Shown here in pieces: positions 5,754 to 59,884 of a DNA stretch of 64,000 nucleotides. Under the pieces are notes generated by a model that saw only the letters and a program-made list of their open reading frames with translations, was not told where the DNA came from and did no database searches. The DNA lies in the NCBI GenBank assembly GCA_964512925.1, contig CAZEKH010000005.1:4325-68324 (forward strand), written 5' to 3'. The DNA is from an uncultured Candidatus Saccharibacteria bacterium. GTDB lineage: Bacteria; Patescibacteriota; Doudnabacteria; UBA920. Within the stretch, counting starts at the first letter, position 1. Every line of letters starts with the position of its first letter. Made by a program: the position numbers and the translations under genes.

Positions 5754-5891
5754 TGTCATCCCGGCCAAAGTTAGACGCGAGCCGGGATCCAGGGTTTGTT
5801 ACTATATTTTTGATTCGATAATCACCTTTGGTCGTTGAAATTCGTAAACCATAACCTCACCCCTAACCCCATCTCCCATATGGGAGAGGGG
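5754..5891 (+). repeat. copy A of a ~140-bp direct repeat (5' hairpin ATCCCGG/CCGGGAT, 3' palindromic element CCTCACCCCTAACC + TCTCCCATATGGGAGA)
   Basis: aligns along its length with 6449..6594. Confidence 0.7.
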
Positions 5892-5938
5892 AAAAAAGGC
5901 ATTTTGAAAGCGCGACCGTACTGTGTCGATCGCGCTGG

Positions 5939-6448: not shown

Positions 6449-6594
6449 TGTCATCCCGGAATTTTTAAGGGAAGTTAAAAATATCCGGGATCCAGGGTTT
6501 ACTAATTTATTTTTGATTCTATTATTAACTTTGGTCATTGAAATACGGAAGTTATATCCTCACTCCTAACCCCATCTCCTATATGGGAGATTGG
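6449..6594 (+). repeat. copy B of the ~140-bp direct repeat
   Basis: same order of 5' hairpin, conserved core CCGGGATCCAGGGTTT..TTTTTGATTC and 3' CCTCACTCCTAACCCCATCTCCTATATGGGAGA element. Confidence 0.7.
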
Positions 6595-6599
6595 AAAAA

Positions 6600-8490: not shown

Positions 8491-8528
8491 CCCTCCCCAA
8501 GAGTTGGGGAGGGTCAAGGGAGAGGTTG
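8491..8528. repeat. GC-rich nested palindromic element (CCCTCCCCAAGAGTTGGGGAGGG + TCAAGGGAGAGGTTG)
   Basis: perfect 8-bp inner inverted repeat; same family as 5855, 31889, 32284, 59848. Confidence 0.7.
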
Positions 8529-24725: not shown

Positions 24726-26027
24726 ATGCCGTATTTTGAGATTTTGAAAAAAGCAGAACTCACCCCAGTCCTCTCTTTAGAAAATAGAGGGAGTGATATA
24801 TTCCCCCCCTCTTTAAGCAAAGAGGGCGAAGGGGGAGTTTTGGGAGCTAGGACGGGCATCATCCATACCGCGCACGGGGATATAAAGACCCCGGCGTTTT
24901 TGCCTATTGGCACCAAAGGCGCGGTAAAGGCTGTGACGGCGGAGGAGCTGAAGTTTTGGGGCGCGGACATCATCCTTGCCAATACCTACCACCTTTGGCA
25001 GCGTCCGGGCGACGCTCTCATATATAAAGCCGGGGGGCTGCATAAATTTATGAACTGGCAAGGGCCTATCTTTACTGACTCCGGGGGGTTTCAGGTTTTC
25101 TCGCTCGCAAAAATGAGAAAAGTTTTAGAATTGGGCGTGCTGTTTCAGTTTGATTTAGACGGCAGGCAGGAACTTTTGTCGCCGGAAAAATCCGTTGATA
25201 TCCAAGCTAACTTAGGCAGCGACATCTGCCTCATACTGGATGATTTTCCGGGATATCCTTGGACTTATGAGCGAAGCAAAGAATCCATTGAGCTTACAAA
25301 CCGTTGGGCTGAAAGGGCGATAAAGGAGCATAAGAGAATAGTGACTGATGGCGACCCCATTAACCCCGGCCAAAAGCTGTGGGGGATAGTTCAGGGCGCA
25401 TCTTTTCCGGACTTAAGGGAAATGTCGGCTAAAGCAATGGTTCAGTTTGGATTTGAAGGCTTTGCCATTGGCGGCGTGGCCGTGGGCGAACCTCACGAGG
25501 AGATGATGAAAGCTGTGGAGGTTACCATACCGCATTTACCGGAAAATGCCCCAAAACATCTTTTGGGCGTCGGAACGCCTTTTGACATTGTTCAGGCAGT
25601 AGCGCGTGGCTGCGATACTTTTGACTGCGTGATCCCGACTAGGGAAGCTAGGCATGGAAGACTCTATATAAATAACAAATATCAAATTTCAAATAACAAA
25701 GCAGACAACCTCTCCCTTTCTCCCTCCCCTCATGAGGGGAGGGAAGGGGTGGGGTTGCAGTTTGAAGGCTATAGTACCATCAATATCTTCAACGAAAAGT
25801 TTAAAGAAGATTTTTCCACCATAGACGATCAGTGCGATTGCTATTTGTGCCAGAACCATACCAAGTCTTACCTTAGACATTTGTTTCAAACTGGCGAGCC
25901 TTTGGCGACAAGGCTTGCAACTATGCACAACCTGAAATTTTATTTAAACTTAATGGCTAAAATCAGGAAATCCATCCAATATGATTATTTTGATGAGATG
26001 GTCTTAAACTACAAAGAAATTAAATAG
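24726..26027 (+). CDS. tgt: queuine tRNA-ribosyltransferase carrying two inserted palindromic elements
   Basis: 433 aa; 'LANTYHL', 'DSGGFQV', 'GFAIGG', Zn site CxCxxC..H (DDQCDCYLCQNH...HL). Confidence 0.85.
   Translation: MPYFEILKKAELTPVLSLENRGSDIFPPSLSKEGEGGVLGARTGIIHTAHGDIKTPAFLPIGTKGAVKAVTAEELKFWGADIILANTYHLWQRPGDALIYKAGGLHKFMNWQGPIFTDSGGFQVFSLAKMRKVLELGVLFQFDLDGRQELLSPEKSVDIQANLGSDICLILDDFPGYPWTYERSKESIELTNRWAERAIKEHKRIVTDGDPINPGQKLWGIVQGASFPDLREMSAKAMVQFGFEGFAIGGVAVGEPHEEMMKAVEVTIPHLPENAPKHLLGVGTPFDIVQAVARGCDTFDCVIPTREARHGRLYINNKYQISNNKADNLSLSPSPHEGREGVGLQFEGYSTINIFNEKFKEDFSTIDDQCDCYLCQNHTKSYLRHLFQTGEPLATRLATMHNLKFYLNLMAKIRKSIQYDYFDEMVLNYKEIK
24757..24840. repeat. nested palindromic element inside tgt codons ~12-39 (CCCCCCCTCTTTAAGCAAAGAGGGCGAAGGGGGAG with outer arms AACTCACCCC/GGGGGAGTT)
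   Basis: ~84 nt, multiple of 3, encodes LTPVLSLENRGSDIFPPSLSKEGEGGVL absent from Tgt orthologs as remembered. Confidence 0.65.
25706..25757. repeat. nested palindromic element inside tgt (CAACCTCTCCC..CCCTCCCCTCATGAGGGGAGGG..AGGGGTGGGGTTG)
   Basis: perfect 8-bp inner arms, ~11-bp outer arms; lies in a ~36-aa segment extra relative to E. coli Tgt. Confidence 0.65.
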
Positions 26028-28467: not shown

Positions 28468-29635
28468 ATATCCTATTTTAGTAAAGAAAAAAGAAAACCT
28501 GGCCTATTTGACTGGCGAGGTTTTTGATTTGCGGACACAGGAGTATCTTTTGGTAAAACCGCTGAAGTACGCGGATAAACGCGGAAGCTATACAGGGGTT
28601 GTTGGGTTTGGCAGCGGTCTGGAAAAAATTTCCTGGGCGCCAAAGTCGGACACTTTATACAACATCGGAAAATATGTGAAAGGCTATGAGAAGTTAAATC
28701 TTGAATATGGGTTTACTTTGGGGGAACATAAGTACATAAAAAGCAAGATCAAGAATTTGAGATTGCAGGTAAAAGTCCAGCCGGAACATTCTCCGGTGGA
28801 TGAGATAAGGCAGATAAAGACCCCGGATGAAATATTGAAGATTAAAAAATCAATGGAAATAGTTAAACAGGTATACAAGTATACTAGGAAGCAAGCGGTG
28901 AAGAGCGGGATGACGGAAGCAATTTTGGCAAAATACATTGAAAATTTGGGTTTAAAGTTGGGGGCAGGCGAGCTGGCGTTTCCGGCCATAGTAGCAAGCG
29001 GTAAGAACGCGGCAATGCCACACCACGTACCTACGAAAAAAAGGTTGAAGCCGGGTGAAAGCATTATTTTGGATTTTGGTTTTTTGGCCGGAGGCCAATC
29101 CGCCACTGGCGGAAAATCTTCATCTAACTACTGCAGCGATTTTACTCGTACGGTTTTTATCAAAAAAGTTCCAAAAAAGCTGGAAATAGCTTATAATCAG
29201 GTGGAGAAAGCTTATTTAGGGAGTATGGAATACATTAACTCCCCCAACCCCCGCCCGAACGCCGCAGGCGGGCAGGCCTCTTTGAAAAAGAGGGAAAAAT
29301 TCACCATCTCCTCCTCTTTGACAAAGAGGAGGCAGGGAGGAGTTCGTGCAGAGGGTGTTTACCAAAAATCAGTCGAGATTTTAGCCGAAAAAAAACTGGA
29401 TAAATATTTTATCCACTCGCTTGGCCATGGTACCGGCCTTGAGATCCACGAAAGGCCTTATTTGGGTCCAAAGTCAAAAGACATTTTAAAAGAAGGAATG
29501 GTTTTCAGTATAGAACCTGGCGTGTATTTTCCCGAGTATGGAGGGGTTCGGATAGAAGATTTGGTCTATATGGAAAATGGAAAAGTAAAAAAATTTATAG
29601 AAGTACCAACAGATTTAAAGTCTAATATTTTATGA
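28427..29635 (+). CDS. M24 family metallopeptidase (Xaa-Pro aminopeptidase-like) with in-frame palindromic insertion; start uncertain (ORF opens at 28346)
   Basis: 'HSLGHGTGLEIHERP', 'FSIEPGVY', 'VRIEDLV' M24 metal-ligand motifs. Confidence 0.65.
   Translation: MEHQRLRQLQQEIKYPILVKKKENLAYLTGEVFDLRTQEYLLVKPLKYADKRGSYTGVVGFGSGLEKISWAPKSDTLYNIGKYVKGYEKLNLEYGFTLGEHKYIKSKIKNLRLQVKVQPEHSPVDEIRQIKTPDEILKIKKSMEIVKQVYKYTRKQAVKSGMTEAILAKYIENLGLKLGAGELAFPAIVASGKNAAMPHHVPTKKRLKPGESIILDFGFLAGGQSATGGKSSSNYCSDFTRTVFIKKVPKKLEIAYNQVEKAYLGSMEYINSPNPRPNAAGGQASLKKREKFTISSSLTKRRQGGVRAEGVYQKSVEILAEKKLDKYFIHSLGHGTGLEIHERPYLGPKSKDILKEGMVFSIEPGVYFPEYGGVRIEDLVYMENGKVKKFIEVPTDLKSNIL
29237..29344. repeat. composite palindromic element inside the M24 peptidase gene (three hairpins: CCGCCCG..CGGGC, CCTCTTTGAAAAAGAGG, CCTCCTCTTTGACAAAGAGGAGG; outer arms AACTCCCCC/GGGAGGAGTT)
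   Basis: 108 nt (36 codons) encoding NSPNPRPNAAGGQASLKKREKFTISSSLTKRRQGGV. Confidence 0.65.
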
Positions 29636-31877: not shown

Positions 31878-31888
31878 TTGTTAAATTT

Positions 31889-31925
31889 CCTCTCCAAGTT
31901 TGGAGAGGGGTTAGGGGAGAGGTTG
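31889..31925. repeat. nested palindromic element (CCTCTCCAAGTTTGGAGAGG + GGTTAGGGGAGAGGTTG) whose 3' arm supplies the SD for the next gene
   Basis: GGGGAGAGG ends 7 nt before the ATG at 31930. Confidence 0.65.
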
Positions 31926-31929
31926 TTGT

Positions 31930-32277
31930 ATGAAACGCAAGCCATATTTAGTACATAACGCAAAAAATTTAAGAACGCGTTCAACTATATGGGAAACAAA
32001 ACTTTGGCAATATTTGAGAGGCGGTAGATTTTTTGATTATAAATTTAAAAGACAAGTTGCTATAGAAAAGTATATCGTAGATTTTTGTTGCAATGAAAAA
32101 AAGTTGATCATTGAGTTGGATGGGAGTGGATATCAATTTTCAGAAAAAGATAAAATTCGTGATAAATTTTTTGAAGGGCTAGGTTATAAAATCTTACGTA
32201 TTTGGAATAATGATATTGACAATAATTTTGACGGGGTTCCATTAAGAATTAAACAAAATTTCGATGAAAAAAAATAA
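31930..32277 (+). CDS. DUF559/Vsr-like endonuclease-domain protein
   Basis: 115 aa; 'FKRQVAIEKYIVDFCC...LIIELDGSGY...RDKFFEGLGYKILRIWNND' matches the DUF559 restriction-endonuclease-like fold pattern. Confidence 0.6.
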   Translation: MKRKPYLVHNAKNLRTRSTIWETKLWQYLRGGRFFDYKFKRQVAIEKYIVDFCCNEKKLIIELDGSGYQFSEKDKIRDKFFEGLGYKILRIWNNDIDNNFDGVPLRIKQNFDEKK

Positions 32278-32283
32278 ACAAAA

Positions 32284-32329
32284 ACAACCTCTCCAGGCCT
32301 CCGGCCACCCTCCCCAAACTTGGGGAGGG
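32284..32329. repeat. palindromic element (CAACCTCTCCAGGCCTCCGGCCA + CCCTCCCCAAACTTGGGGAGGGG) immediately 5' of nfo
   Basis: GGGGAGGGG arm lies ~9 nt upstream of the ATG giving MAVGCHVSAAGG. Confidence 0.65.
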
Positions 32330-32338
32330 GAAAGCGGT

Positions 32339-33388
32339 ATGGCTGTGGGTTGTCATGTTTCTGCGGCAGGCGGAGTGTGGAATGCGCCGAAGAATGCAAA
32401 GGATTTAAACTGCGAAACTTTCCAGATATTTACCCGTCCGCCTATGGGCGGACCTGCGCCGAAAATAGACCAGGAGGGAGTAGAGAAATTTAAGATGGAG
32501 ATGGAGAAGTATTATTCTTCATTCCATACAGAAGATGCAGAACCCCTCCCAACCTCCCCTTTGGTAAAGGGGAGGGGTAAGGTAGGTTCCCCCTCTTTTT
32601 CAAAGAGGGGGTTAGGGGGAGTTGGTTTTGTTGTTCACTGCCCGTACATTGTAAATTTTGGTTCAGCAAAGAAAACTACTTTTCACGGATCTATTTCTAT
32701 AGTTTCTGAAGAACTAAAAAGGGCTAATTCGCTTGGAGCTCGGTTTGTTATGACTCACTTAGGCAGCTTTAAGGATTTGGGCCAGGAAAAAGGTATGGTG
32801 CAGGCGCAAAAAGGTTTGGAAGAGGTTTTAAAAAAGTACGAAAGTTCTATAAAAAACAAACAGCCCTCCCAATTTCTTTTAGAGATAGCGGCAGGACAAG
32901 GTGAAGTTATAGGTGATACTTTTGAGGAACTGGCCGAGCTTATGGAGCCGCTAAAAAAATACAAAACTTTCGGGGGAATCTGCTTTGACACTCAGCATGC
33001 TTGGTCTTCGGGATATGATATAACCAAAAGCGAATGGGTAAAACAATTTGAGAAGACTATTGGCCTAAAATGGCTGCGGATGAGCCATATAAACGACTCT
33101 AAAGTTGATTTAGGCGGCAAAAAAGACCGTCACGAGCATATTGGCGAGGGGAAGATAGGAGAAAAGGGGATATATAATTTTATTCGAAATTTAAAATTGA
33201 ACCTGCCTGTCGGCAAGGCAGGGATTGAAGATTTAAACACCCTCTCTACCCGAAGCGGGTCCCTTCTCTCCCAGAAGGGAGAGATTAATAATGTTGTCTT
33301 TGACTCTTTTGCCTTGATTTTAGAAACTGAACATGATAAAGTGAAAACAGACATAAAAATCTTAAAAAAATTAAGGGAAAAAATATAA
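32339..33388 (+). CDS. nfo: endonuclease IV (AP endonuclease family 2) with two in-frame palindromic insertions; longer ORF opens at 32264
   Basis: 'VGCHVSAAGGV', 'ICFDTQHAWSSGYD', 'RMSHINDSK..DRHEHIGEGKIG', 'ALILETE' match Nfo metal-ligand blocks. Confidence 0.8.
   Translation: MAVGCHVSAAGGVWNAPKNAKDLNCETFQIFTRPPMGGPAPKIDQEGVEKFKMEMEKYYSSFHTEDAEPLPTSPLVKGRGKVGSPSFSKRGLGGVGFVVHCPYIVNFGSAKKTTFHGSISIVSEELKRANSLGARFVMTHLGSFKDLGQEKGMVQAQKGLEEVLKKYESSIKNKQPSQFLLEIAAGQGEVIGDTFEELAELMEPLKKYKTFGGICFDTQHAWSSGYDITKSEWVKQFEKTIGLKWLRMSHINDSKVDLGGKKDRHEHIGEGKIGEKGIYNFIRNLKLNLPVGKAGIEDLNTLSTRSGSLLSQKGEINNVVFDSFALILETEHDKVKTDIKILKKLREKI
32541..32625. repeat. double-hairpin element inside nfo (CCTCCCCTTTGGTAAAGGGGAGG and CCCCCTCTTTTTCAAAGAGGGGG)
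   Basis: 85 nt encoding PLPTSPLVKGRGKVGSPSFSKRGLGGVG between conserved KY..S and (I/V)xxH..Y(L/I)xN(L/F)G blocks. Confidence 0.7.
33201..33288. repeat. triple-hairpin element inside nfo (CCTGCC..GGCAGG, ACCCGAAGCGGGT, TCTCTCCCAGAAGGGAGAGA)
   Basis: ~88 nt encoding LPVGKAGIEDLNTLSTRSGSLLSQKGEI, extra relative to E. coli Nfo between GEGxIG and ILETI blocks. Confidence 0.6.
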
Positions 33389-33896: not shown

Positions 33897-33955
33897 AACA
33901 AAACCCCCTCCTAGCCTCCCCCATTTAGGGGAGGAAGGGTATAGGGGTTTTTGTT
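33897..33955. repeat. long imperfect palindromic element (AAAACCCCCTCCTAGCCTCCCCCATTTAGGGGAGGAAGGGTATAGGGGTTTT) followed by T-run; probable terminator
   Basis: inner CCTCCCCC/GGGGGAGG arms, outer AAAACCCC/GGGGTTTT arms. Confidence 0.55.
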
Positions 33956-34009: not shown

Positions 34010-35047
34010 GTGAATAGTGAATATATGAAATATCACGAGCTGGAAAGTTCAACTAAAGTAATTCTAAAGGTGATTTTTGCGGGACTGGCGCTGGCTTTTT
34101 TGTGGCAGATACGAGATATTTTGCTTTTGCTTTTGTTATCCCTTATATTTGCTTCGGCTATGGACCCGATGGTCGGGTATTTTCGGGAAAAAGGCGTACC
34201 CAGGGCTGTTTCCGTGCTTTCAGTTTATGTTTTAGTATTAGGCTTAGGGGGTTTGGTTTTGGCTATGGTGGTACCAGCGGTTTTAGAACAGATAAATTTA
34301 TTTTCCAGTTCTTTGCCAATATATTTAGGGCGGATACAGGAAAGTTTTGGTATAAATCTCAACGGCGATTTCCTTCAAACTATTCAGAATTTTTTTAACA
34401 GCACAAGTCAAGCGGGAGTGGTGAGCGGAACTTTTGGGGTGTTTAGCGGATTTTTTAGCTTTATCACAGTTTTGGTTATCTCGTTTTACCTGGTGGCGGA
34501 AGAGCGGGGGATGAAAAAGTTTGTTTCCGCGCTTTTGCCGGAACATCATCATGAGTTTACTTTAGGACTTTTAGAAAAAGTACAAAAAAAGATGGGGCTC
34601 TGGGTTTTAGGCCAGCTCATACTTAGCCTTTCTATTTTTGCTCTAACTTTGGTGGGGTTGATGTTAGTCGGTGTCATTTATGGAAAGGGTTTTGACAACC
34701 CTATTGTAGCCAATGCTTTGTTTTTAGCTTTGCTGGCAGGAGTTTTAGAGATAGTGCCTTACATTGGTCCATTTGTTTCGGCAATACCGGCTTTGATAAT
34801 TGCTTTTGTCATAAGTCCGGCTTTGGCTTTGGCAGTGGGAATTTTGTATTTGTTTATCCAAAAAATGGAAGGTTATGTTTTGGTGCCTAAAGTTATGGAG
34901 CGTACAGTCGGCACTTCGCCTTTGGCAGTTTTAGTCGCTTTGCTTGTCGGTTTTAAGCTGGCGGGTATTTTGGGGCTTTTGATTTCCATTCCTTTAGTTT
35001 CCGCAGCAACAGTGGTTTTTAACGAATTTATGGCGGAGAGGAAGTAA
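34010..35047 (+). CDS. AI-2E family transporter (second paralog)
   Basis: 345 aa, 8 TM, same family architecture as 8818..9861. Confidence 0.7.
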   Translation: MNSEYMKYHELESSTKVILKVIFAGLALAFLWQIRDILLLLLLSLIFASAMDPMVGYFREKGVPRAVSVLSVYVLVLGLGGLVLAMVVPAVLEQINLFSSSLPIYLGRIQESFGINLNGDFLQTIQNFFNSTSQAGVVSGTFGVFSGFFSFITVLVISFYLVAEERGMKKFVSALLPEHHHEFTLGLLEKVQKKMGLWVLGQLILSLSIFALTLVGLMLVGVIYGKGFDNPIVANALFLALLAGVLEIVPYIGPFVSAIPALIIAFVISPALALAVGILYLFIQKMEGYVLVPKVMERTVGTSPLAVLVALLVGFKLAGILGLLISIPLVSAATVVFNEFMAERK

Positions 35048-35535: not shown

Positions 35536-37131
35536 ATGAATAGATTTTACCTTACAACCACCCTTCCATACGTAAATTCAGACCCTCACTTGGGGTTTGC
35601 TTTGGAAATGGTTTTGGCGGACACAATAGTTCGGTTTCAAAAATTGCAGGGTAAGGAAGTTTTTTTTAATACAGGCACAGACGAGCATGGTCTTAAGATA
35701 TATCAAAAAGCTTTAGAACGAGGTATAAGCCCAAAAGAGTACTGCGACGAATATGCAGAAAAATTTAAACAGCTGATGCCAGCTTTGGGGGTTTTGCCGG
35801 AGATACATTTCATACGCACCACGGACGAACACCATATAAAAGCCTGTCAGGAGTTTTGGAAACTGGTAGATAAAAATGGCTACATAGAAAAGAAAAATTA
35901 TAAGGTCAAATATTGCGTTGGCTGCGAGCTGGAAAAAACTGAAAGCGATCTGTCAGAAGAAGGAAAATGTTTAGTGCACCCGCATTTGGAAATAGAGATT
36001 CGCGAAGAGGAAAATTATTTTTTTAAGTTTAGCGCTTTCCAAAAACCGCTTTTAGAACTTTATGAAAAACAGCCGGATTTTGTTGTGCCGGATTTTCGGT
36101 TTAACGAGATTAGAGAGTTTGTAAAAAATGGACTTTCTGACTTTTCTATCTCGCGGCTTAAAGAAAAAATGCCCTGGGGCGTGCCTGTGCCGGGCGACGA
36201 CAACCACGTTATGTATGTCTGGTTTGACGCGCTTATAAACTATGTTTCAACGTTGGGTTGGCCAGAATACCACCCCTTTAATTCCCCTCCTATTTTAGGA
36301 GGGGAGGGCCAGAATGGCGGGGAGGTTAGTAATTTATTTCAAGAATTCTGGGGGACAAAAGAAAACCCTAACGGAATACAAATTGCAGGCAAGGACAACC
36401 TCCGTCAGCAGTCTGCTATGTGGCAGGCAATGCTTATGGCTGCGGGCCTGCCGAACAGTAAACAAATCATCATCCACGGCTTTATTAACTCCGGGGGGCA
36501 GAAAATGTCCAAATCTTTGGGCAATGTAGCGGATCCTTATAAAATAATTGAAGATTTAAAAATAAAAGGATTGAATAAACAACAGGCGACAGACGCGCTT
36601 CGGTATTATTTACTCAAAGAAATTCCTACTTTTGAAGACGGGGACTACACTTGGGATAGGTTTTTGGAAGTCTATAACTCCGACCTTGCCAACGGCATTG
36701 GCAACCTAACAAGTAGGATTTTGAAAATGAGCATAGCTAATTCAATTTTTCTCTCTCCAGGCGTGGAGAGAGTCCCCGACTCGTCCGCCAAAGCTTTAGC
36801 GGAGGAGGAAGGGGGAGAGAGGTCGCATGATAGTAATTCCCCAAACGATCAAAAAATTAAAGAGTTTATTTCCTCTTACCACTTAAAACTCGCTCTTGAA
36901 GAAATCTGGAAAGATATAAAATTCTGCGATGAATACATTCAAAAAGAAGAACCATTTAAAGTCGTTAAAGTAGACCCGGAAAAAGCAAAAAAGCAGATAG
37001 AGTTTTTACTTGGTAAACTAAAAGAGATAGCAGAAAACCTGCAGCCGTTTTTACCAGACACTTCCCAGCAAATAACAAACAGTTTAAAACCGCTTTCGGG
37101 AGAAATTCCACGGTTGTTTCCGAGGATATAA
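35536..37131 (+). CDS. metG: methionine--tRNA ligase (short form) with two in-frame palindromic insertions
   Basis: 531 aa; 'TTTLPYVNSDPHLG' HIGH-type motif, 'KMSKSLGNV'. Confidence 0.9.
   Translation: MNRFYLTTTLPYVNSDPHLGFALEMVLADTIVRFQKLQGKEVFFNTGTDEHGLKIYQKALERGISPKEYCDEYAEKFKQLMPALGVLPEIHFIRTTDEHHIKACQEFWKLVDKNGYIEKKNYKVKYCVGCELEKTESDLSEEGKCLVHPHLEIEIREEENYFFKFSAFQKPLLELYEKQPDFVVPDFRFNEIREFVKNGLSDFSISRLKEKMPWGVPVPGDDNHVMYVWFDALINYVSTLGWPEYHPFNSPPILGGEGQNGGEVSNLFQEFWGTKENPNGIQIAGKDNLRQQSAMWQAMLMAAGLPNSKQIIIHGFINSGGQKMSKSLGNVADPYKIIEDLKIKGLNKQQATDALRYYLLKEIPTFEDGDYTWDRFLEVYNSDLANGIGNLTSRILKMSIANSIFLSPGVERVPDSSAKALAEEEGGERSHDSNSPNDQKIKEFISSYHLKLALEEIWKDIKFCDEYIQKEEPFKVVKVDPEKAKKQIEFLLGKLKEIAENLQPFLPDTSQQITNSLKPLSGEIPRLFPRI
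36268..36327. repeat. palindromic element inside metG (CCCCTCCTATTTTAGGAGGGG) flanked by 8-bp direct repeat GCCAGAAT
   Basis: encodes FNSPPILGGEGQNGGEVS; GCCAGAAT at ~36261 and ~36309. Confidence 0.6.
36749..36822. repeat. composite element inside metG (CTCTCTCCAGGCGTGGAGAGAG, CCGCCAAAGCTTTAGCGG, G-rich tail AGGAGGAAGGGGGAGAGAGG)
   Basis: 74 nt encoding LSPGVERVPDSSAKALAEEEGGERS. Confidence 0.55.
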
Positions 37132-38163: not shown

Positions 38164-39219
38164 TTGTCAATGCTAATCGACACCCACGCTCACATTAACT
38201 TTAAAGCTTATGAAGACGACGCAGAGGAAGTTTTGCGCAGGGCTTTTGAGAGTGGGGTTATGGTTATAAACGTGGGGACGCAGTTGGACACTTCAGAGCA
38301 GTCTGTTAGGCTTGCTGAGAGGTACTCTAAAAAAAATATCCCTCCTCACTCCTCCCTTAATTTAAGGGAGGAAGCAGCACAATTACCCCCTCTTAAGGTA
38401 AGAGGGGGTCAGGGGGGTGATATTAAGGCGGTTTATTCCGTAGTTGGACTTCATCCCGTTCATACTTACTCCCAGCACGTAGACGAAGAAGAGAGTCATT
38501 TTAAAACGCGGGAAGAAAAGTTTGACTATGAGGCGTATAAAAAATTGGCACAAAATGATTTGGTGGTGGGGATTGGGGAATGTGGACTTGATTATTTTAG
38601 ATTGAAGATTGATGATTTAAGATTGCCAATAGAACAAATTAAAGAAAATCAGAAACAGGCATTTATGCAACAGGTGAGGCTGGCAAAGGAACTAAACAAA
38701 GCTTTGGTCATACACTGTAGGCCTTCGGAGGGGACGAGTGATGCGTATGAAGATATACTGGCAATTCTGGATTCAGAATTGCAAATTTCAAATATCAAAT
38801 TACAAAATTCAACAAACTCCGCTACACCCTCTACCCTAAACCCTAATCCCTTTCGTTTTGAGATCCACTCTTTTACTGGTACCCCCGACATAGTCCAAGA
38901 GTTTTTAAAGCGTGGCGCGTATGTGGGGCTAAATGGTATAATTACATTCGGAGACCGAAAATCAAAAAATATAGCGACGTCCGCCTCGGGCGGAGATAAG
39001 AGTGGAAACATGGACAATGTTTTGAAAACTGTCCCTTTAGACCGTATTGTCCTTGAAACTGACAGCCCGTATCTTACGCCAAAACCAAACCGGGGCAAAA
39101 GAAACGAGCCTTCCTATGTCCGTTTTGTTGCCGAACATATTGCTCAAGTAAAAAATATAGATTTTGCCCAAGTCGAAGAGCAAACCACAAAAAACGCAAT
39201 TAATTTGTTTAAGTTATAA
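38164..39219 (+). CDS. tatD: TatD-family metal-dependent DNase/hydrolase with in-frame palindromic insertion
   Basis: 351 aa; 'IDTHAHIN', 'VGLHP', 'IGECGLDY', 'ALVIHCR', 'LETDSPYL' TatD blocks. Confidence 0.8.
   Translation: MSMLIDTHAHINFKAYEDDAEEVLRRAFESGVMVINVGTQLDTSEQSVRLAERYSKKNIPPHSSLNLREEAAQLPPLKVRGGQGGDIKAVYSVVGLHPVHTYSQHVDEEESHFKTREEKFDYEAYKKLAQNDLVVGIGECGLDYFRLKIDDLRLPIEQIKENQKQAFMQQVRLAKELNKALVIHCRPSEGTSDAYEDILAILDSELQISNIKLQNSTNSATPSTLNPNPFRFEIHSFTGTPDIVQEFLKRGAYVGLNGIITFGDRKSKNIATSASGGDKSGNMDNVLKTVPLDRIVLETDSPYLTPKPNRGKRNEPSYVRFVAEHIAQVKNIDFAQVEEQTTKNAINLFKL
38335..38424. repeat. nested double-hairpin element inside tatD (CTCCCTTAATTTAAGGGAG, CCCCCTCTTAAGGTAAGAGGGGG; outer arms AATATCCCTCC/GGGGGGTGATATT)
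   Basis: 90 nt = 30 codons encoding KKNIPPHSSLNLREEAAQLPPLKVRGGQGGDIKA between RYS and VYSVVGLHP. Confidence 0.7.
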
Positions 39220-39774: not shown

Positions 39775-42393
39775 ATGTCAAGTAGATATAATCCACAGAA
39801 AATTGAAACTAAGTGGCCCTCCTACGCTAAAGCTACGAAGGGCAGGCAAAAGGTTTCTAAATATAAACCCCAGGAAATTGAACGTAAGTGGCAGTCACTG
39901 TGGTTTAAGAAGAAGCCTTTTTCTGCTGTGGAAAATAAGAGAAAGAAAAAATACATTTTAGTTGAGTTTCCTTACCCTTCGGGAGCGGGTTTACATATGG
40001 GGCACTTAAGGCCGTATGTGGCGGCAGATGTAACTGCTAGGTTTTTGCGCCTTACCGGGCATGAGGTTTTGTTTCCTATGGGCTGGGACGCGTTTGGGCT
40101 GCCGGCGGAAAACTACGCCATAAAAATGGGAGTGCACCCGACCATAACCACCAAGAAAAATGTGGCGAACGCAAAAAAACAAATGTTGTCGTGGGGGCTT
40201 TCTTTTGACTGGAAAAGGGAGATAAACACAACTGACCCTAACTACTACAAATGGACGCAGTGGTTGTTTTTGCAATTTTTCAAAAAAGGTTTGGCGTTTG
40301 AAAAAACCGGACTTATAAACTGGTGTCCAAAAGACAAGACAGGGCTTGCCAACGAAGAAGTAATAGACGGCAAATGCGAACGCTGCGGAACAGTAGTTGA
40401 AAAAAAAGAACTTCGCCAATGGTACCTAAAAATCACAGACTACGCTGAGAAATTATTAGCTGGTCTAAAGGATTTAACCGAATGGCCTGAAGCAGTCAAG
40501 CTTCAGCAGGAAAATTGGATAGGGAAAAAGACGGGCATAAACATTACATATGAGATTGAAGGTAAAAACAAAACAATAACTTGTTTTACCACGCGTCCTG
40601 ATACTAATTTTGGCGCAACTTTTATCGTTATTGGTCCTGAGCATCCTTTGATACAGCAAAATGAACTTGGTATTCAGAACTATGACGAAGTTAAAAGGTA
40701 TATCGAAAAAGCAAAGGAACAGACTGAGCAAGACAGGACTGCGGAGAATCGCAAAAAAACAGGAGTCTTTACTGGGCTATATTGCATAAATACTTTAAAT
40801 AACTACAAGATGCCTTTGTATGTAGCAGATTATGTTCTTGGAAATGTGGGCACAGGGGCTGTGGTCGGGGTGCCTGGGCACGACAAACGGGATTTTGAGT
40901 TTGCGCAAGTTTTTGGTATTGAAGTAAAAAGAGTTGTGCAAAAAAATGTAGACGATACTGGAATTATTGACCATATAGACAAGGTTCAAGAAGAAGAAGG
41001 GAAGATGGTAAATTCCGGTTTCTTAAATGGGCTTGATATTCACGAGGCCACTGAGAAAATAATGGACTATATGGAAAGTGAGGGTTATGGTAAAAGAGTT
41101 ACCAACTACAAACTCCGTGACTGGGTGTTTTCGCGCCAGCGTTACTGGGGAGAGCCGATACCTTTAATTCATTGCGATCCGCCAGCTGGCGGATGTGGCG
41201 TTGTGGCTGTACCGGAAAAAGATTTACCGGTTAAACTTCCAAATGTAAAAAAATACGAACCGACGGGAACAGGAGAGTCGCCGCTGGCTGGCATAGACAA
41301 ATGGGTAAATACCAAATGCCCGAAGTGCAAAGGCCCGGCTAAAAGGGAAACCAACACCATGCCTCAGTGGGCGGGCAGCTCGTGGTATTGGCTTAGGTAT
41401 TTGGACCCTAAAAATACCAAAACTTTTTCCGACATAAAAAAACAGAAATATTGGACACCGGTAGATGTGTATTTTGGCGGGATGGAACACACGACTTTAC
41501 ATTTGCTTTATTCACGTTTTTGGAATTTGTTTTTATACGACCAAAAGCTGGTTACAGAAAAAGAACCTTACAAGAGGCGTTTTCCGCACGGGATAATTTT
41601 GGGCCCAGATGGGGAAAAAATGTCTAAGAGTAGAGGCAACGTGGTGGATCCGCAGAAATTGGTCAAAGAATTTGGCGCTGACGCGGTACGTATGTATCAG
41701 CTGTTTTTAGGTCCTCACGGGGATATGATTGCTTGGAATGACCAGGGGATAGTCGGAGTGAAAAGGTTTTTGGATAGAGTTTGGAGTTGGGCACAGCAAT
41801 TGAATATTGAAGATATAAGATTGAAGATTGTAGACAGTGAGATAGTAGAACGGGAGATAAACAAACTGGTTAAGAAAATCACTGAGGACTTGGAAGCAAT
41901 GCGGTTTAATACCTGTATTTCGGCTTTTATGTCGTTTTTAAATGAAGTCAAAGACGAGCAAGTGTCTTTAGAAACAGTTAGAAAGTTTTTGATTCTTTTG
42001 AGCCCGTTTGCGCCGCATATTGCTGAAGAACTACTTGAGAGAGTTAGAGAGTTAGAGAGTAAGAGGGTGAGTAGATCAGTTAATCAGACAATCAGTAAAT
42101 CAGAAAGTCAGAAAGTCAAAACAAAACTCCCTCCAACCCCCTCTTTGTCAAAGAGGGGGAGCAAGGGGGAGTTCGCAGAGTGGCCTCAGTGGGACGAGAG
42201 TAAAATTTTAGAAGCTACAGCAGAGATCATCGTCCAGGTTAACGGCAAAGTCAAAGGCAAGGTAGTTGTGCCAAACCAAAGCAGTGAAGAAGTGGTAAAA
42301 GAAGCTATGCTGAAACTCCCGCAGTTTTCGTCTCTTGGTGAAATAAAAAGAACAATCTATGTGCCCAATAGACTTATTAACTTAGTTATTTAG
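39775..42393 (+). CDS. leuS: leucine--tRNA ligase; start uncertain (ORF opens at 39667)
   Basis: 'PYPSGAGLHMGHLRPY' HIGH motif, 'GEKMSKSRGNVVDP' KMSKS, CP1 editing domain, C-terminal 'QVNGKVKGKVVV'. Confidence 0.9.
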   Translation: MSSRYNPQKIETKWPSYAKATKGRQKVSKYKPQEIERKWQSLWFKKKPFSAVENKRKKKYILVEFPYPSGAGLHMGHLRPYVAADVTARFLRLTGHEVLFPMGWDAFGLPAENYAIKMGVHPTITTKKNVANAKKQMLSWGLSFDWKREINTTDPNYYKWTQWLFLQFFKKGLAFEKTGLINWCPKDKTGLANEEVIDGKCERCGTVVEKKELRQWYLKITDYAEKLLAGLKDLTEWPEAVKLQQENWIGKKTGINITYEIEGKNKTITCFTTRPDTNFGATFIVIGPEHPLIQQNELGIQNYDEVKRYIEKAKEQTEQDRTAENRKKTGVFTGLYCINTLNNYKMPLYVADYVLGNVGTGAVVGVPGHDKRDFEFAQVFGIEVKRVVQKNVDDTGIIDHIDKVQEEEGKMVNSGFLNGLDIHEATEKIMDYMESEGYGKRVTNYKLRDWVFSRQRYWGEPIPLIHCDPPAGGCGVVAVPEKDLPVKLPNVKKYEPTGTGESPLAGIDKWVNTKCPKCKGPAKRETNTMPQWAGSSWYWLRYLDPKNTKTFSDIKKQKYWTPVDVYFGGMEHTTLHLLYSRFWNLFLYDQKLVTEKEPYKRRFPHGIILGPDGEKMSKSRGNVVDPQKLVKEFGADAVRMYQLFLGPHGDMIAWNDQGIVGVKRFLDRVWSWAQQLNIEDIRLKIVDSEIVEREINKLVKKITEDLEAMRFNTCISAFMSFLNEVKDEQVSLETVRKFLILLSPFAPHIAEELLERVRELESKRVSRSVNQTISKSESQKVKTKLPPTPSLSKRGSKGEFAEWPQWDESKILEATAEIIVQVNGKVKGKVVVPNQSSEEVVKEAMLKLPQFSSLGEIKRTIYVPNRLINLVI
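42036..42173. repeat. composite insertion in leuS 3' region: tandem GAGAGTTA and AATCAG/AAGTCAG repeats followed by nested palindrome AACTCCCTCC..CCCCCTCTTTGTCAAAGAGGGGG..GGGGGAGTT
   Basis: encodes ERVRELESKRVSRSVNQTISKSESQKVKTKLPPTPSLSKRGSKGE between conserved APHIAEEL and WPxWDE blocks. Confidence 0.65.
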
Positions 42394-47533: not shown

Positions 47534-48538
47534 ATGGACAGTGTTATTCCTGTTACACAAATACCACAAAATTCTACTAACGAATCTTCGAATTCGCTTG
47601 TTCCTTCAGGATACCCTGGAACTGCTACAACGCAGGATTTTTTAGCAAATGACAACCCGTTTCAGCCCCAAGTTCCTAATGCGCTTAAAGCGGAAGAAAA
47701 AAATCTTTCTGAAGACAGAGTTTCTTACGCTGACGCAAAAATCCAGGAAATTGAAGTTTCTAAAATAGTTGCCAACCCTTTCCAGCCAAGAAAAACTTTT
47801 AACCCGGAGGCTTTAAAGGAGTTGGCTGATTCTATCCGCGAACACGGGGTGATTCAGCCTTTGGTGGTTACCGAAACACCAAATGGTTATGAAATTGTGG
47901 TAGGGGAAAGGCGTTTTCGGGCAAGCCAGCTGGCTGGTCTTTTGAAAGTTCCAGCTATCGTAAAAAGCCAGATGGTGGACCAGACTAAGCTGGAAGTAGC
48001 GCTCATAGAAAACATCCAAAGGCAGGAGTTAAATCCTATAGAAGAAGCGATGGCCTATGACAGGCTAATGAAGACTTTTGACTTGACCCAAGACCAGGTG
48101 GCAAAGAAAGTTGGAAAGTCGAGGCCCGCAGTTGCCAACACTGTCAGGCTCTTAAACCTGCCTGCGGAAATCCAAAGAGCTTTGATAGAAGGCAAAATCA
48201 CCGAAGGGCACGCCAGGGCGCTTTTGGGGCTCATAGACAAAGACAAGATGCTTTTAATGTTTCAGAAGATCCAGGAAGAAGGTTTAAATGTGCGCCAGGT
48301 GGAGCTGAAAGTCCGCGAGCTTTCCATCCGCAGGCGGATGGACGCGGCAATGCCCGACCCAAAGCTGATGGCGCTTGAAACCGAGCTTCGCGGCCGTTTG
48401 GGCACCCAGGTGAAGATCCAAAAACAAGGCACCGGCGGCAGGATCACTATAGAATATTTTTCCGAAGACGAGCTAAATGAGATCATCCATAAAATGGCAG
48501 AAAATAAAAATCAGGATAGCCAATATTTAACGGTTTAA
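47534..48538 (+). CDS. parB: ParB/Spo0J chromosome partitioning protein with ~60-aa low-complexity N-terminal extension
   Basis: 'IVANPFQPRKTF', 'GVIQPLVVTE..YEIVVGERRFRA' ParB box, HTH 'QVAKKVGKSRPAVANTVRLL'. Confidence 0.85.
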   Translation: MDSVIPVTQIPQNSTNESSNSLVPSGYPGTATTQDFLANDNPFQPQVPNALKAEEKNLSEDRVSYADAKIQEIEVSKIVANPFQPRKTFNPEALKELADSIREHGVIQPLVVTETPNGYEIVVGERRFRASQLAGLLKVPAIVKSQMVDQTKLEVALIENIQRQELNPIEEAMAYDRLMKTFDLTQDQVAKKVGKSRPAVANTVRLLNLPAEIQRALIEGKITEGHARALLGLIDKDKMLLMFQKIQEEGLNVRQVELKVRELSIRRRMDAAMPDPKLMALETELRGRLGTQVKIQKQGTGGRITIEYFSEDELNEIIHKMAENKNQDSQYLTV

Positions 48539-48893: not shown

Positions 48894-49010
48894 TCTGGGT
48901 AAGAGAAACTTAGAGAAATAGAATGTTAGAGAATTAGAGAGATAGAGTGTTAGAGAGGAAGAAAGTTAGCAAAGTAGATAAAATGAACTTTAAAAATTTT
49001 TTGTAGTTTT

Positions 49011-49128
49011 ACCCCCTCTCCCGTGTGGGAGAGGGTTGGGGTGAGGTTTCAGCGATGGTAATAAAACCAAGGTTTGTTATTATCAAACATTATTACCTCA
49101 CCCTAGCCCTCTCCGTGATCGGAGAGGG
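49011..49128. repeat. symmetric composite of two palindromic elements in opposite orientation around an AT-rich inner hairpin
   Basis: CCCTCTCCCGTGTGGGAGAGGG+TTGGGGTGAGGT ... ACCTCACCCTAGC+CCTCTCCGTGATCGGAGAGG. Confidence 0.65.
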
Positions 49129-49475
49129 AATCTGAAAAAGGCTTGAAATATTTATTATTTGTTCTTTAAAACTTAACACCAACCGCCCACAAAAGTTTTT
49201 CCAACAATTGATTTACTGATTATCAGATATTCTGATCAACTTGGAACTTCTTTTGTGTGCAGTCCGTTTGTTTTTATTTCTTTTCCTCCCGCTGGTCGGG
49301 ACGGACACAAGATGGAATCTCATTCCAAAGCACATAAAAACAAAAAAGGCACACGAAAGTTTGGGCAGATCTTGGCTTACCAGCCACTAAAAAATCCCGT
49401 TTTCAAAATTCGGGATTCTGCCCATAGCTATCCGGGCCGCGCAATTTGCTGGCCCATTCGTTCGAGGAGGAAAAA

Positions 49476-49679: not shown

Positions 49680-49808
49680 CCAGCAACAGACTTAAAGAGC
49701 AAGTACTTGGGTAGTACCCTGCAATTATACCGCTCTTCAGGTCTTAACCCCGGGGTTCACCAGCTGACCACCATCGGCTAGTGGATCCCGGGCCACTCAA
49801 TTTTTTCT

Positions 49809-49846
49809 TCCTCTCCGTTATCGGAGAGGGTAGGGTGAGGTAACGG
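49809..49846. repeat. palindromic element (CCTCTCCGTTATCGGAGAGG + GTAGGGTGAGGTAACGG)
   Basis: same family, reverse orientation. Confidence 0.65.
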
Positions 49847-57005: not shown

Positions 57006-57037
57006 TCCGCCAGAGGCGGATCCCGCCTTGCGGGAAA
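57006..57037. repeat. double hairpin TCCGCCAGAGGCGGA + TCCCGCCTTGCGGGA + A-run (GGATCCCGCYTTGCGGGAAAA motif, copy 1)
   Basis: motif recurs twice in tandem at 59762..59809. Confidence 0.5.
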
Positions 57038-58039: not shown

Positions 58040-58105
58040 AATACCACCCCGCCCTGCGGGCACCCCTCCTATATTTAGGCGGGGAAAATCCGAAAGGTTT
58101 CCGGA
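58040..58105. repeat. hairpin cluster in rpsL leader (CCCGCCCTGCGGG, CCCCTCCTATATTTAGGCGGGG, ATCCGAAAGGTTTCCGGAT)
   Basis: CCCCTCCTAT(A)TTTAGG core identical to metG element at 36281. Confidence 0.45.
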
Positions 58106-58684: not shown

Positions 58685-59269
58685 ATGCCAAGAAAATCAC
58701 GAAATTACGACAAACATGTGCCAGAACCGGATCCGAAATACGGGTCGGTTAAATATGCCAAGTTTATCAATTACATCATGGAGCGCGGAAAGAAAAATGT
58801 TGCGCGCAAGATTTTTTACGATGCTTTGGATATAGTGGAAGAGAAAGTTAAAGCTTTGCAGCCGCAGGGCGGGGCTAAAACAGGTGCCCCTGCAAAAGCC
58901 GGCGCAGATAAAACCGGAGAAAAACCGGCAAAAGAAGAAAAGACTGTGGCTTTGGACGGCCGCCAAGTTTTTGATATTGCTTTGAAGAATGTGGGCCCCT
59001 TGATGGAACTAAAAAGCCGCCGCGTAGGCGGAGCTAACTACCAGGTTCCTATGGAAGTTGTTGAACCAAGAAGAACAGTTCTCGCTATGCGCTGGATACT
59101 GGCTTCCTGCCGCGCCAAAAAAGGCGTGCCAATGGCAATGAGACTGGCTACTGAAATTGTGGATGCTTACCAGAAACAGGGAGCTTCCATCAAAAAGCGT
59201 GAAGATGTGCACCGTATGGCAGAAGCCAACAAAGCCTTTGCCCACTTTGCAAGGTTTAACCGCAGATAA
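58685..59269 (+). CDS. rpsG: 30S ribosomal protein S7 with ~32-aa Ala/Lys/Gly/Pro-rich insertion
   Basis: 'KSRRVGGANYQVP', 'ALAMRWI', 'KKREDVHRMAEANKAFAHF'. Confidence 0.9.
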   Translation: MPRKSRNYDKHVPEPDPKYGSVKYAKFINYIMERGKKNVARKIFYDALDIVEEKVKALQPQGGAKTGAPAKAGADKTGEKPAKEEKTVALDGRQVFDIALKNVGPLMELKSRRVGGANYQVPMEVVEPRRTVLAMRWILASCRAKKGVPMAMRLATEIVDAYQKQGASIKKREDVHRMAEANKAFAHFARFNRR

Positions 59270-59761: not shown

Positions 59762-59809
59762 TCGGATCCCGCTTTGCGGGAAAATCGGATCCCGCTTTGC
59801 GGGAAAAAT
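59762..59809. repeat. tandem 24-bp direct repeat (TCGGATCCCGCTTTGCGGGAAAA x2), each a TCCCGC/GCGGGA hairpin
   Basis: two adjacent identical units; related single unit at 57021..57037. Confidence 0.65.
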
Positions 59810-59847: not shown

Positions 59848-59884
59848 CAACCTCTCCCTGGCCCTCCCCAGGTCTTGGGGAGGG
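59848..59884. repeat. nested palindromic element (CAACCTCTCCCTGG + CCCTCCCCAGGTCTTGGGGAGGG) 18 nt upstream of fusA
   Basis: perfect 8-bp inner inverted repeat. Confidence 0.7.

Follow-up and report, generated by a model that had tools for sequence, protein, structure and literature searches.

Introduction

The BoxC or PIT repeat of Escherichia coli has been known for about 30 years, yet neither its function nor how it spreads has been established; it has been described as strictly intergenic. Holder et al. (2015) defined 'intrastrand triplex motifs' together with the abundant TMECO, the repeat earlier called BoxC or PIT (PMC4666352, where the earlier BoxC work of Bachellier et al. and Hoyne et al. 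is cited). Its pattern was given as 5'-CCCTCNCCC N3-6 GGGNGAGGG N3 GGGNGAGGG, with the third arm also written GGGNGAGG, and its 23 occurrences in E. coli MG1655 were 'always located intergenically', sometimes in inverted pairs and with no transposon link (PMC4666352). According to the same account, TMECO forms a triplex as single-stranded DNA in vitro and is associated with local genomic instability, and no effect as promoter or terminator or on expression was detected when PIT/BoxC was tested (PMC4666352). No insertion mechanism or mobilising enzyme has been offered for BoxC in the literature. In the present study, we analysed a 64,000-nt stretch (hereafter, the window) of contig CAZEKH010000005.1 from an uncultured Candidatus Saccharibacteria bacterium, assigned by GTDB to the Doudnabacteria within the Candidate Phyla Radiation (CPR/Patescibacteria). 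The metG gene in this window contains two in-frame insertions, which very probably represent copies of a small GC-rich repeat family of the BoxC/PIT/TMECO ('intrastrand triplex motif') type.

The Rickettsia palindromic elements (RPE; Ogata et al. 2000, 2002, as presented in PMC10969869) offer a second point of comparison. These palindromic selfish repeats, like those described here, lie in frame in many unrelated housekeeping genes and are translated as fold-compatible surface segments, and in-frame gene residence reaches an unusually high frequency among them (PMC10969869).

Two in-frame insertions in metG

The open reading frame (ORF) at 35536-37131 (+) is an intact metG encoding a methionyl-tRNA synthetase (MetRS) of 531 amino acids (aa) (Pfam PF09334, E = 1.5e-90), in which KMSKS and the other catalytic motifs and invariant columns are retained. 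Its closest non-self homologues are 68% identical, and those with a name belong to Candidatus Doudnabacteria or other Patescibacteria. In 31 aligned MetRS sequences of the Doudnabacteria type, length proved hypervariable at two sites, both of which carry an insertion in metG. At site 1, the spacer from LGW to AGKDN is 41 aa long in the window, compared with 16 or 22 aa in most of the ca. 45 readable CPR loci. Removal of 36269-36325 (57 nt, ACCACCCC...GGGGAGG) leaves GWPE-FSNL-FQEFWGTKENPNGIQI (FQEFWGT), the canonical 22-aa form PE-xxxx-F-xx-FWGT. The segment at site 2 is 81 aa long, compared with a mode of 58 and with 55 in the closest relatives; the ca. 25 surplus codons therefore match the 73-nt composite at 36751-36823. 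The AlphaFold2 model of MetRS (mean predicted local distance difference test score, pLDDT, 78.5) had its lowest confidence in the two insert regions, with pLDDT < 50 at residues 240-243, 248-262, 421-423 and 425-432. Mean pLDDT in the three 10-residue blocks from 401 to 430 was 80, 50 and 45, and low confidence extended over residues 410-432. Both stretches are in-frame insertions, in what the model suggests are low-confidence surface loops. The two elements comprise the following features.

36269..36325, + strand: element 1, 57 nt (19 codons), composed of ACCACCCC, TTTAAT, hairpin H1, loop 2 with a mini-hairpin, and GGGGAGG
36283..36305, no strand: H1 of element 1, a perfect 10-bp stem TCCCCTCCTA/TAGGAGGGGA with a 3-nt loop
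36308-36318: mini-hairpin GCCA-GAA-TGGC within loop 2 of element 1
36319..36327, + strand: third arm of element 1, GGGGAGGTT, a mirror tail that reverses purine arm TAGGAGGGG
36751..36823, + strand: element 2, an in-frame insertion of ca. 73 nt (ca. 24-26 codons), composed of H1, loop 2 with H2, and a mirror tail
36751-36772: H1 of element 2, CTCTCTCCA-GGCG-TGGAGAGAG
36780-36807: palindrome H2, filling the 42-nt loop 2 of element 2
36815-36823: mirror tail of element 2, G-rich, GAGAGAGGT

The palindrome CCCCTCCTATTTTAGGAGGGG at the centre of element 1 occurs just once in the window (chance expectation 0). The initial annotation had recognised it but placed it at 36281-36301, whereas it occupies 36284-36304; the second composite element that it had described was found as hairpin 36751-36772, palindrome 36780-36807 and G-rich tail 36815-36823, and the peptides that it quoted for both elements were correct. 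Loop 2 of element 1 is 13 nt long, and the triplex-type motif is present on both strands, each with 9 mirror triads and 0 mismatches. On the opposite strand, a second third arm (ACCACCCC read as GGGGTGGT) follows a 5-nt loop. Element 1 thus has a third arm on each strand and is a 'two-tailed' copy. Its RNA-type fold, with an outer stem around H1 and the mini-hairpin, had an energy of -32.1 kcal/mol (z = -2.4), and it was matched at E = 0.013 by a covariance model (R1) built from 20 copies of the family. Element 2 likewise has 9 mirror triads and 0 mismatches, with a fold of -38.5 kcal/mol (z = -2.3). The position of the loop-2 mini-hairpin is shared by element 1, the copies at 58040-58084 and 32297-32342, and copies in two other CPR loci (L045 and L053); the extra mini-hairpin is a trait of one subfamily that includes both metG copies.

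Different palindrome-like inserts are present in other Doudnabacteria MetRS sequences, in both of these loops and in addition at a C-terminal site (e.g., MKHEAGNMKQDGMLHVSSS, or a 40-aa insert with PLLDKEG; rows P0005, P0017, P0019, P0059, P0071, P0054, P0022 and P0006 of alignment A1). By this comparison, the MetRS loops act as recurrent landing or tolerance sites. A contig scan for a close relative with empty metG sites yielded no MetRS above 67% identity. The metG protein cluster has a single member, and the sole other contig carries an identical sequence.

Mirror tail and relation to the BoxC/PIT/TMECO class

In 40 subfamily representatives, the tail mirrors the purine arm found in the same copy, as its reverse and not its complement. 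The tail scored 7.88 against the mirror of its own arm, compared with 5.76 +/- 0.25 when permuted among copies (0/2000 permutations reached the observed value) and 5.42 in the direct-orientation control; the subfamily copies are not independent and these permutation statistics are somewhat inflated, and an unbiased copy set gave the same result. At least 7 mirror triads were present in 19 of 30 window hairpin strands, compared with 11 in the direct-orientation control. Nested self-insertion was rejected as the origin of the tail, as it predicts direct similarity and the direct control lay at the permutation baseline. A mirror repeat is impossible by templated copying and is the signature of a purine-motif intramolecular triplex. 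The third arm of the metG and other window repeats can potentially form such an intrastrand triplex with G.G-C, A.A-T and T.A-T triads. The repeat unit comprises a 5' pyrimidine arm, loop 1, a purine arm, loop 2 and, as the mirror image of that purine arm, another one. In single-stranded DNA, the first two arms form a Watson-Crick hairpin, and the third arm can lie antiparallel on the purine arm.

The intergenic copy at 49014-49046 fits the strict published TMECO pattern with 0 mismatches (0 expected). The inverted pair containing it (49005-49135) had matches in 5414 of 5426 complete E. coli genomes, at chromosomal sites without annotation and at a median of 5 places per genome; most of the best matches were 80-90% identical, and one example, in the flgG-flgH spacer, has CCTCACCCTAGCCCTCTCC in common with the window pair. 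The class II purine-motif architecture (at least 8 triads and at most 1 mismatch) is present in both metG copies, which are architectural members or variants of the class and not canonical TMECO.

The window repeats share with BoxC/PIT/TMECO the succession of a C-rich arm, a G-rich arm and a mirror G-rich arm (class II purine motif), a length of ca. 35-37 nt per unit, inverted 'palindromic' pairs, and a strain- and lineage-patchy abundance, with neither a target-site duplication (TSD) nor a known transposase. In contrast to BoxC/PIT/TMECO, which occur in E. coli, other Proteobacteria and Cyanobacteria, the host here is a member of the CPR/Patescibacteria with 40% GC. Moreover, whereas the repeat is intergenic in MG1655, 13 of the ca. 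23 window copies lie in ORFs, in frame, including those of essential aminoacyl-tRNA synthetases. The arms also vary here, and an extra loop-2 hairpin (11-28 nt) is possible.

Dispersed copies in the window

The window (GC ca. 40%) contains 16 perfect GC-rich hairpins with a stem of at least 8 bp, compared with 0.6 +/- 0.7 in dinucleotide shuffles; in 10 of them, compared with 0 in shuffles, the 5' arm consists of pyrimidines and the 3' arm of purines. Each hairpin is flanked, on one side or on both, by a short spacer and then a G-rich tail (e.g., GGGGTGAGGTT, GGGGGAGTT, GGGAGAGGTT). The covariance model identified ca. 21 loci, and the second metG element and 58040-58084 bring the total to ca. 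23. Besides the two metG elements, they are as follows.

58040..58084, - strand: intergenic sister of element 1, AATACCACCCC, mini-hairpin GCCC-TGC-GGGC, CCCCTCCTATATTTAGGCGGGG (alignment A3)
49014..49046, + strand: intergenic copy with the exact TMECO/BoxC pattern, CCCTCTCCC GTGT GGGAGAGGG TTG GGGTGAGG
49095..49130, - strand: copy inverted relative to that at 49014, with which it forms a 'palindromic TM' pair as in E. coli
42124..42172, no strand: two-tailed 49-nt copy in LeuRS, in frame, LPPTPSLSKRGSKGE, -30.2 kcal/mol, z = -4.3
25708..25756, no strand: two-tailed 49-nt copy in Tgt, in frame, in a 34-aa insertion (residues 317-350), z = -4.9
24757..24840, no strand: two copies in the N-terminal extension of Tgt
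29297..29344, no strand: copy in an M24 peptidase, in frame, interrupting the Pfam domain
32297..32623, no strand: at least four copies in endonuclease IV (Nfo), in frame (32297-32342, 32541-32588, 32589-32623), and a further weak copy at 33262-33297
38337..38421, no strand: two adjacent copies in TatD, in frame, PPHSSLNLREEAAQLPPLKVRGGQGG, z = -5.4, an insertion relative to PDB TatD
5854..5902, - strand: intergenic copy, covariance model
6557..6595, - strand: intergenic copy, covariance model
8491..8526, + strand: intergenic copy, covariance model
31888..31923, + strand: intergenic copy, tail GGAGAGG 9 nt upstream of the ATG of a DUF559 ORF (31930)
33902..33946, - strand: two-tailed intergenic copy, terminator-like, followed by the T-run GGGGTTTTTGTTTTTT (to 33950)
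49807..49842, + strand: intergenic copy, covariance model
59849..59884, - strand: intergenic copy upstream of fusA, covariance model

Thirteen loci lie in ORFs (MetRS x2, LeuRS, Tgt x3, M24 peptidase, endonuclease IV x4, TatD x2) and 10 of the ca. 23 are intergenic. As coding sequence makes up 86% of the window, copies are ca. 4-fold denser in spacers than in coding DNA. All genic copies are in frame and contain no stop codons, and they occupy positions at which homologues have short variable loops. They fall in segments missing from solved homologues (Tgt residues 317-350, TatD 55-111, Nfo 83-120), and the LeuRS segment with the copy comprises 47 residues, compared with 11 in the solved homologue; for LeuRS, Tgt and Nfo, the PDB homologues are too distant to fix insertion lengths. 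Within the family, the arms vary (CCCCCTC, CCTCCCC, CCCCTCC, CTCTCTCC), the motif is present on both strands of many copies ('two-tailed', ca. 49 nt), and loop 2 may hold an extra hairpin of 11-28 nt.

At the gathering threshold, Rfam recognised just four tRNAs in the window. The G-quadruplex was rejected as a general feature, as four G-runs were present in the copy at 25734-25754 alone, and so was a conserved 5' TT flank, which is present in the window copies and not in those of other genomes. No transposase, RAYT, Y1 or HUH protein was found among the 31 of 63 window ORFs that were scanned.

Copies in other genomes and the possibility of local origin

For comparison, 1.34 Mb around MetRS was searched in 80 other CPR genomes (L-numbered loci). 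No copy was found in 70 of the 80 MetRS loci, whereas copies were numerous in L053 (Nomurabacteria, at least 11), L069 (4-5) and L045 (3), and some of them likewise lay in frame within long ORFs. The TatD loop TTAAGGTAA (peptide PPLKVRGG) recurs nearly unchanged in an RsmI-like methyltransferase of L068, and the TatD loop TTAATTTAA (SLNLRE) in the IleRS of L031, in genomes whose MetRS is ca. 50% identical to that of the window. The presence of the same hairpins in different genes of distant genomes favours dispersal over independent local origin. At L053 19075-19135, a copy of the 50-nt element carries a further hairpin, CCCTCCTGAAAAAAGGGAGG, inserted in the loop of its inner hairpin, and this copy is nested or hybrid.

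The hairpin-plus-tail design was also found in IMG/VR contigs of 41-72% GC. One of these, L133 (IMGVR_UViG_2554235432_000007), matched Haemophilus phage SuMu, an H. parasuis phage, with 93% identity across 39% of a 4-kb query. The highest-scoring hairpin-plus-tail copies, CCCCCTCTTTGACAAAGAGGGGGTTAGGGGGAGATT, are at L133 4586-4621 and in the related loci L123, L127 and L145. Phage or prophage DNA can thus carry such repeats; in the published account, BoxC was not linked to phages (PMC4666352). In Rfam searches of three repeat-bearing viral loci, one chance-level miRNA match was obtained (E = 0.022, 30 bits against a gathering threshold of 95) and no relevant family.

An alternative to dispersal from other copies is that each hairpin has its own local origin within a hypervariable loop, through replication slippage or opposite-strand template switching. 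Both metG sites are hypervariable and other Doudnabacteria have unrelated palindromic-looking inserts (e.g., MKHEAGNMKQDGMLHVSSS), the stems are perfect as expected of template switching, and BoxC-type sites have been reported to be locally unstable (PMC4666352). However, unlinked copies share stems, loops and tails: four genes contain CCCCCTCTTT-NNN-AAAGAGGGGG plus GGGGGAGTT, and different genes of different genomes have TTAAGGTAA and TTAATTTAA as loops. Copies are found in spacers as well, their near-identity extends to E. coli BoxC, and templated copying cannot yield a mirror-image tail. Local origin is therefore improbable.

Possible function of the insertions

A comparably small likelihood attaches to the view that the inserts are selected functional modules, namely adaptive protein loops or nucleic-acid signals within the gene; such signals could be Shine-Dalgarno (SD)-like pausing sites (GGAGG, with CCUCC as the mask) or roadblocks of triplex or hairpin type that regulate replication, transcription or translation. 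The purine arms and tails have an SD-like sequence (GGAGG), the pyrimidine arms are similar to anti-SD (CCUCC), the copy at 33902-33946 resembles an intrinsic terminator for the upstream ORF, and the stems remain perfect within coding DNA. For some copies in spacers, the distance from the end of the copy to the downstream ATG is 6-13 nt; besides the copy at 31888-31923 before 31930, these are the following.

L053 11495-11541: start-proximal copy
L053 11903-11949: start-proximal copy
L069 11931-11978: start-proximal copy

From their position, start-proximal intergenic copies may supply ribosome-binding sites. In addition, all four genic CCCCCTCTTT-NNN-AAAGAGGGGG copies (24805, 29310, 32589, 42137) are in one frame although three frames are open. 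The common frame encodes P/S-S-L-S/T-K-R/E-G (P ca. 0.04), which hints at selection on the peptide. Nevertheless, these elements are found in either orientation, within spacers as well as in proteins unrelated to one another; disorder is predicted for the insert regions, which most orthologues lack; and the distribution is patchy among close lineages. The published PIT/BoxC tests, with no promoter, terminator or expression effect (PMC4666352), also argue against function.

Direct repeat and target-site duplication

Two copies of a 9-bp direct repeat are associated with element 1.

36260..36268, + strand: first copy of GGCCAGAAT, host codons W-P-E of the conserved G-W-P-E plus the first bases of the element consensus
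36307..36315, + strand: second copy of GGCCAGAAT, inside loop 2 of element 1, forming the 5' arm and loop of GCCA-GAA-TGGC

The initial annotation had read this repeat as 8 bp long and as a possible TSD. The repeat exists, with a length of 9 bp, and the duplication was not supported, as the second copy lies inside the insert, removal of 47 nt gives stop codons, and the chance of such a repeat is ca. 0.16. GGCCAGAAT has just two copies in the window, with 0.57 expected, and 9 of 100 shuffles gave at least two. The spacing between the two copies, 47 nt, is not divisible by 3, and the second copy is 10 nt from the right end of the 57-nt inserted block. Since the element consensus begins (AG)AAT-ACCACCCC in alignment A3, the first copy ends with 3-5 bases (AAT, possibly AGAAT) that are part of the element and not of the target. 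Deleting 47 nt (one repeat and the intervening DNA) leaves WRGG followed by two stop codons; thus, a metG ancestor of this form would have been non-functional.

The same pattern was sought around the other copies, as the initial annotation had proposed, with its absence to count against a duplication. The longest repeat common to both 40-nt flanks was 4-7 nt in 23 copies, except for one 9-mer and one 8-mer, with a mean of 5.5 nt compared with 5.3 nt at 3000 random sites. The flanks of the other 22 copies thus resembled random controls, which is essentially the outcome named as speaking against a TSD. The 8-mer, GGAGAGAG around H2 of element 2, consists of the purine arm and its mirror tail. 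A flank repeat of at least 9 nt (40 nt on each side of a 23-nt site) has P = 0.007 per site, or ca. 0.16 for at least one among 23, and one of at least 8 nt has P = 0.036 per site, or ca. 0.57 family-wise. In L053 and L069, the ends of near-identical 50-nt copies are sharp, with T or TT repeated at most. The GGCCAGAAT repeat is real, yet not clearly beyond chance. It is either a chance occurrence or a local templated-repair scar beside a structure-forming repeat, and the latter option would fit the local instability reported for BoxC sites (PMC4666352).

Even less probable than local origin or selected function is cut-and-paste transposition into metG, as for a miniature inverted-repeat transposable element (MITE), with a TSD of 8-9 bp and the 38 nt between the GGCCAGAAT copies as the element. 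The 9-mer is exact and rare, the conserved core of the sister copies ends ...GGAGGGGAG, directly before the second GGCCAGAAT (alignment A3), and the second metG element is flanked by GGAGAGAG. However, GGAGAGAG is an arm with its mirror tail, the 47-nt unit disrupts the frame and gives stop codons, and the AAT/AGAAT of the first copy belongs to the element consensus. Furthermore, GGCGGGGAGGTT after the second copy is an element-type mirror tail (9 triads) that is not found in homologues. The flank repeats of the remaining copies are no longer than in controls, the sharp-ended L053 and L069 copies show no 8-9-bp duplication, and the family-wise chance is ca. 0.16 (at least 9 nt) or 0.57 (at least 8 nt). 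The fixed-length TSD that a MITE would show at every copy was not found among the 23 window copies or the L053/L069 copies. As for the terminal inverted repeats of a full-length insertion sequence, the elements are palindromic, and no transposase was present among the 31 of 63 ORFs scanned with Pfam. What stands from the initial annotation is that these are discrete insertions rather than slippage products; the repeat family to which they belong is dispersed over many unlinked genes and spacers and extends to other genomes. There is next to no likelihood that the inserts go untranslated, through RNA-level removal or through ribosomal bypassing (as in T4 gene 60 and the mitochondrial 'byp' elements, which a GC-rich hairpin with a flanking direct repeat in an AT-rich gene superficially resembles) with the direct repeat as take-off and landing sites, since all genic copies are stop-free and keep the frame, whereas skipped inserts would show no frame constraint, and a hop between the GGCCAGAAT copies enters a frame with TAG after 4 codons.

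Possible mode of insertion and points against a BoxC-type origin

If the metG insertions are BoxC-type repeats, the copies would have arrived through insertion events without long target duplication. The likeliest route would involve single-stranded DNA at the replication fork or during repair. Candidate processes are structure-dependent insertion, or the action in trans of a hairpin-recognising enzyme, as for REP/RAYT or IS200/IS605. Genic copies would be translated as disordered Pro/Ser...Gly/Glu/Arg-rich loops and might persist as nearly neutral survivors of far more insertions, a reading suggested by the ca. 4-fold higher density of copies in spacers.

Several points weigh against this interpretation, in addition to the non-independence of the subfamily copies. 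Because there is no empty-site allele (closest MetRS 68%), the insertion boundaries were drawn from protein spacing and sister copies. Both metG copies miss the strict TMECO pattern, with arms TCCCCTCCTA and CTCTCTCCA and a loop 2 of 13 and 42 nt, compared with 3 nt in the pattern. The triplex is read from sequence symmetry alone, no in vivo evidence of a triplex has been presented for the E. coli motif (PMC4666352), and purine-motif triplexes do not form in RNA. The 9-mer coincidence (P ca. 0.007 per site) has no positive explanation, and no mobilising enzyme was found in the 31 of 63 ORFs scanned in the 64-kb window.

Comparison with other small palindromic repeats

Similar to RPEs, the window repeats were tolerated as in-frame insertions, here in MetRS, LeuRS, Tgt, TatD, Nfo and the M24 peptidase. 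However, RPEs are 100-150 bp long, AT-rich and restricted to Rickettsia, and encode a conserved peptide, whereas the window repeats are 36-75 nt long and GC-rich, with a mirror tail and varied peptides. No sequence similarity was found between the window repeats and RPEs. The window repeats behave like RPEs but are not members of that family.

REP and REPIN sequences are mobilised by RAYT transposases (Bertels and Rainey 2011, PMC3116915). They resemble the window repeats as imperfect palindromes of ca. 35 nt, often in inverted pairs that form a long hairpin, and are dispersed and non-autonomous with no TSD. They differ in being extragenic, with a conserved 5' GTAG-type tetranucleotide and a co-occurring RAYT gene; no GTAG-type head was found in alignments A2-A4, and no RAYT among the 31 of 63 ORFs scanned. 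The small dispersed repeats (SDR) of Nostoc, reportedly described by Elhai and colleagues in 2008 (a study cited in PMC3116915 and PMC5861425), and the GC clusters of yeast mitochondria, another group of very small hairpin elements, are likewise apparently mobile hairpins of 20-50 nt that are GC-rich in an AT-rich background, sometimes nested and sometimes within coding sequence. They differ in sequence family and host, and to our knowledge no mirror (triplex) tail has been described for either group.

Other features of the window

A second family of short GC-rich hairpins (TCCGCC-N3-4-GGCGGA, TCCCGC-TTT-GCGGGA) was observed at the following positions.

29099-29113: second GC-hairpin family
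32436-32453: second GC-hairpin family
36780-36807: second GC-hairpin family, occupying loop 2 of metG element 2
38980-38994: second GC-hairpin family
41177-41194: second GC-hairpin family
48323-48342: second GC-hairpin family
57006-57035: second GC-hairpin family
59767-59804: second GC-hairpin family

The TatD copy of this family (peptide SASGGD) lies in a 15-aa insertion relative to the PDB homologue, and peptides like those of the family (SFAKASADK, SAEALAKADK) are found as inserts in other Doudnabacteria MetRS sequences. Ribosomal protein S7 (58685-59269) has 194 aa, of which residues 6-183 cover the full 148-position Pfam profile with ca. 30 surplus residues, and its ORF contains GC-rich hairpin-like stretches at 58858-58893 and 59016-59045; the extra residues may be another in-frame insertion, in a ribosomal protein. 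The DUF559 ORF (Vsr-like endonuclease fold, 31930-32277) directly precedes the endonuclease IV gene, with a slight overlap, and this gene has the most repeat copies in the window; no link between DUF559 and the repeats was established. Every 2-kb bin had a positive GC skew, and the + strand carries 55 of the 63 ORFs of at least 90 aa. The window in its entirety is probably on one replichore, with genes co-oriented with replication. Two AI-2E transporter paralogues were also present (8818-9861 and 34010-35047).

Implications for CPR genomes

The kind of element described here is already known as BoxC/PIT/TMECO. What appears to be new is the CPR/Patescibacteria host, the frequent in-frame residence in essential genes and the subfamily with an extra loop-2 hairpin. 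A literature search in an incomplete library found no paper on such elements in CPR or containing the element sequences, and a prior description is possible. The repeat class reaches a very distant phylum, and some window copies are nearly identical in sequence to E. coli BoxC.

A broader proposal, that BoxC/triplex repeats are active, ultra-small mobile DNA that crosses phyla and colonises essential CPR genes in frame, is tentative and on present evidence rather doubtful. If it is true, Patescibacteria would be the second lineage after Rickettsia with 'protein-coding palindromes'. The sharp in-frame boundaries (57 nt in metG) and the lack of a long TSD could then provide the first direct handle on BoxC insertion, which would probably proceed by a structure-dependent single-strand mechanism. 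Such copies could also show whether the repeats remodel surface loops of core enzymes.

As coding frames bound insertion ends far more tightly than spacers, the genic copies should aid in working out the insertion mechanism. The repeats are tolerable as translated surface loops, which explains many odd Pro/Gly-rich low-complexity insertions and length differences in CPR proteins. Translated repeat loops of this kind therefore bear on the annotation, alignment and phylogeny of CPR genomes.

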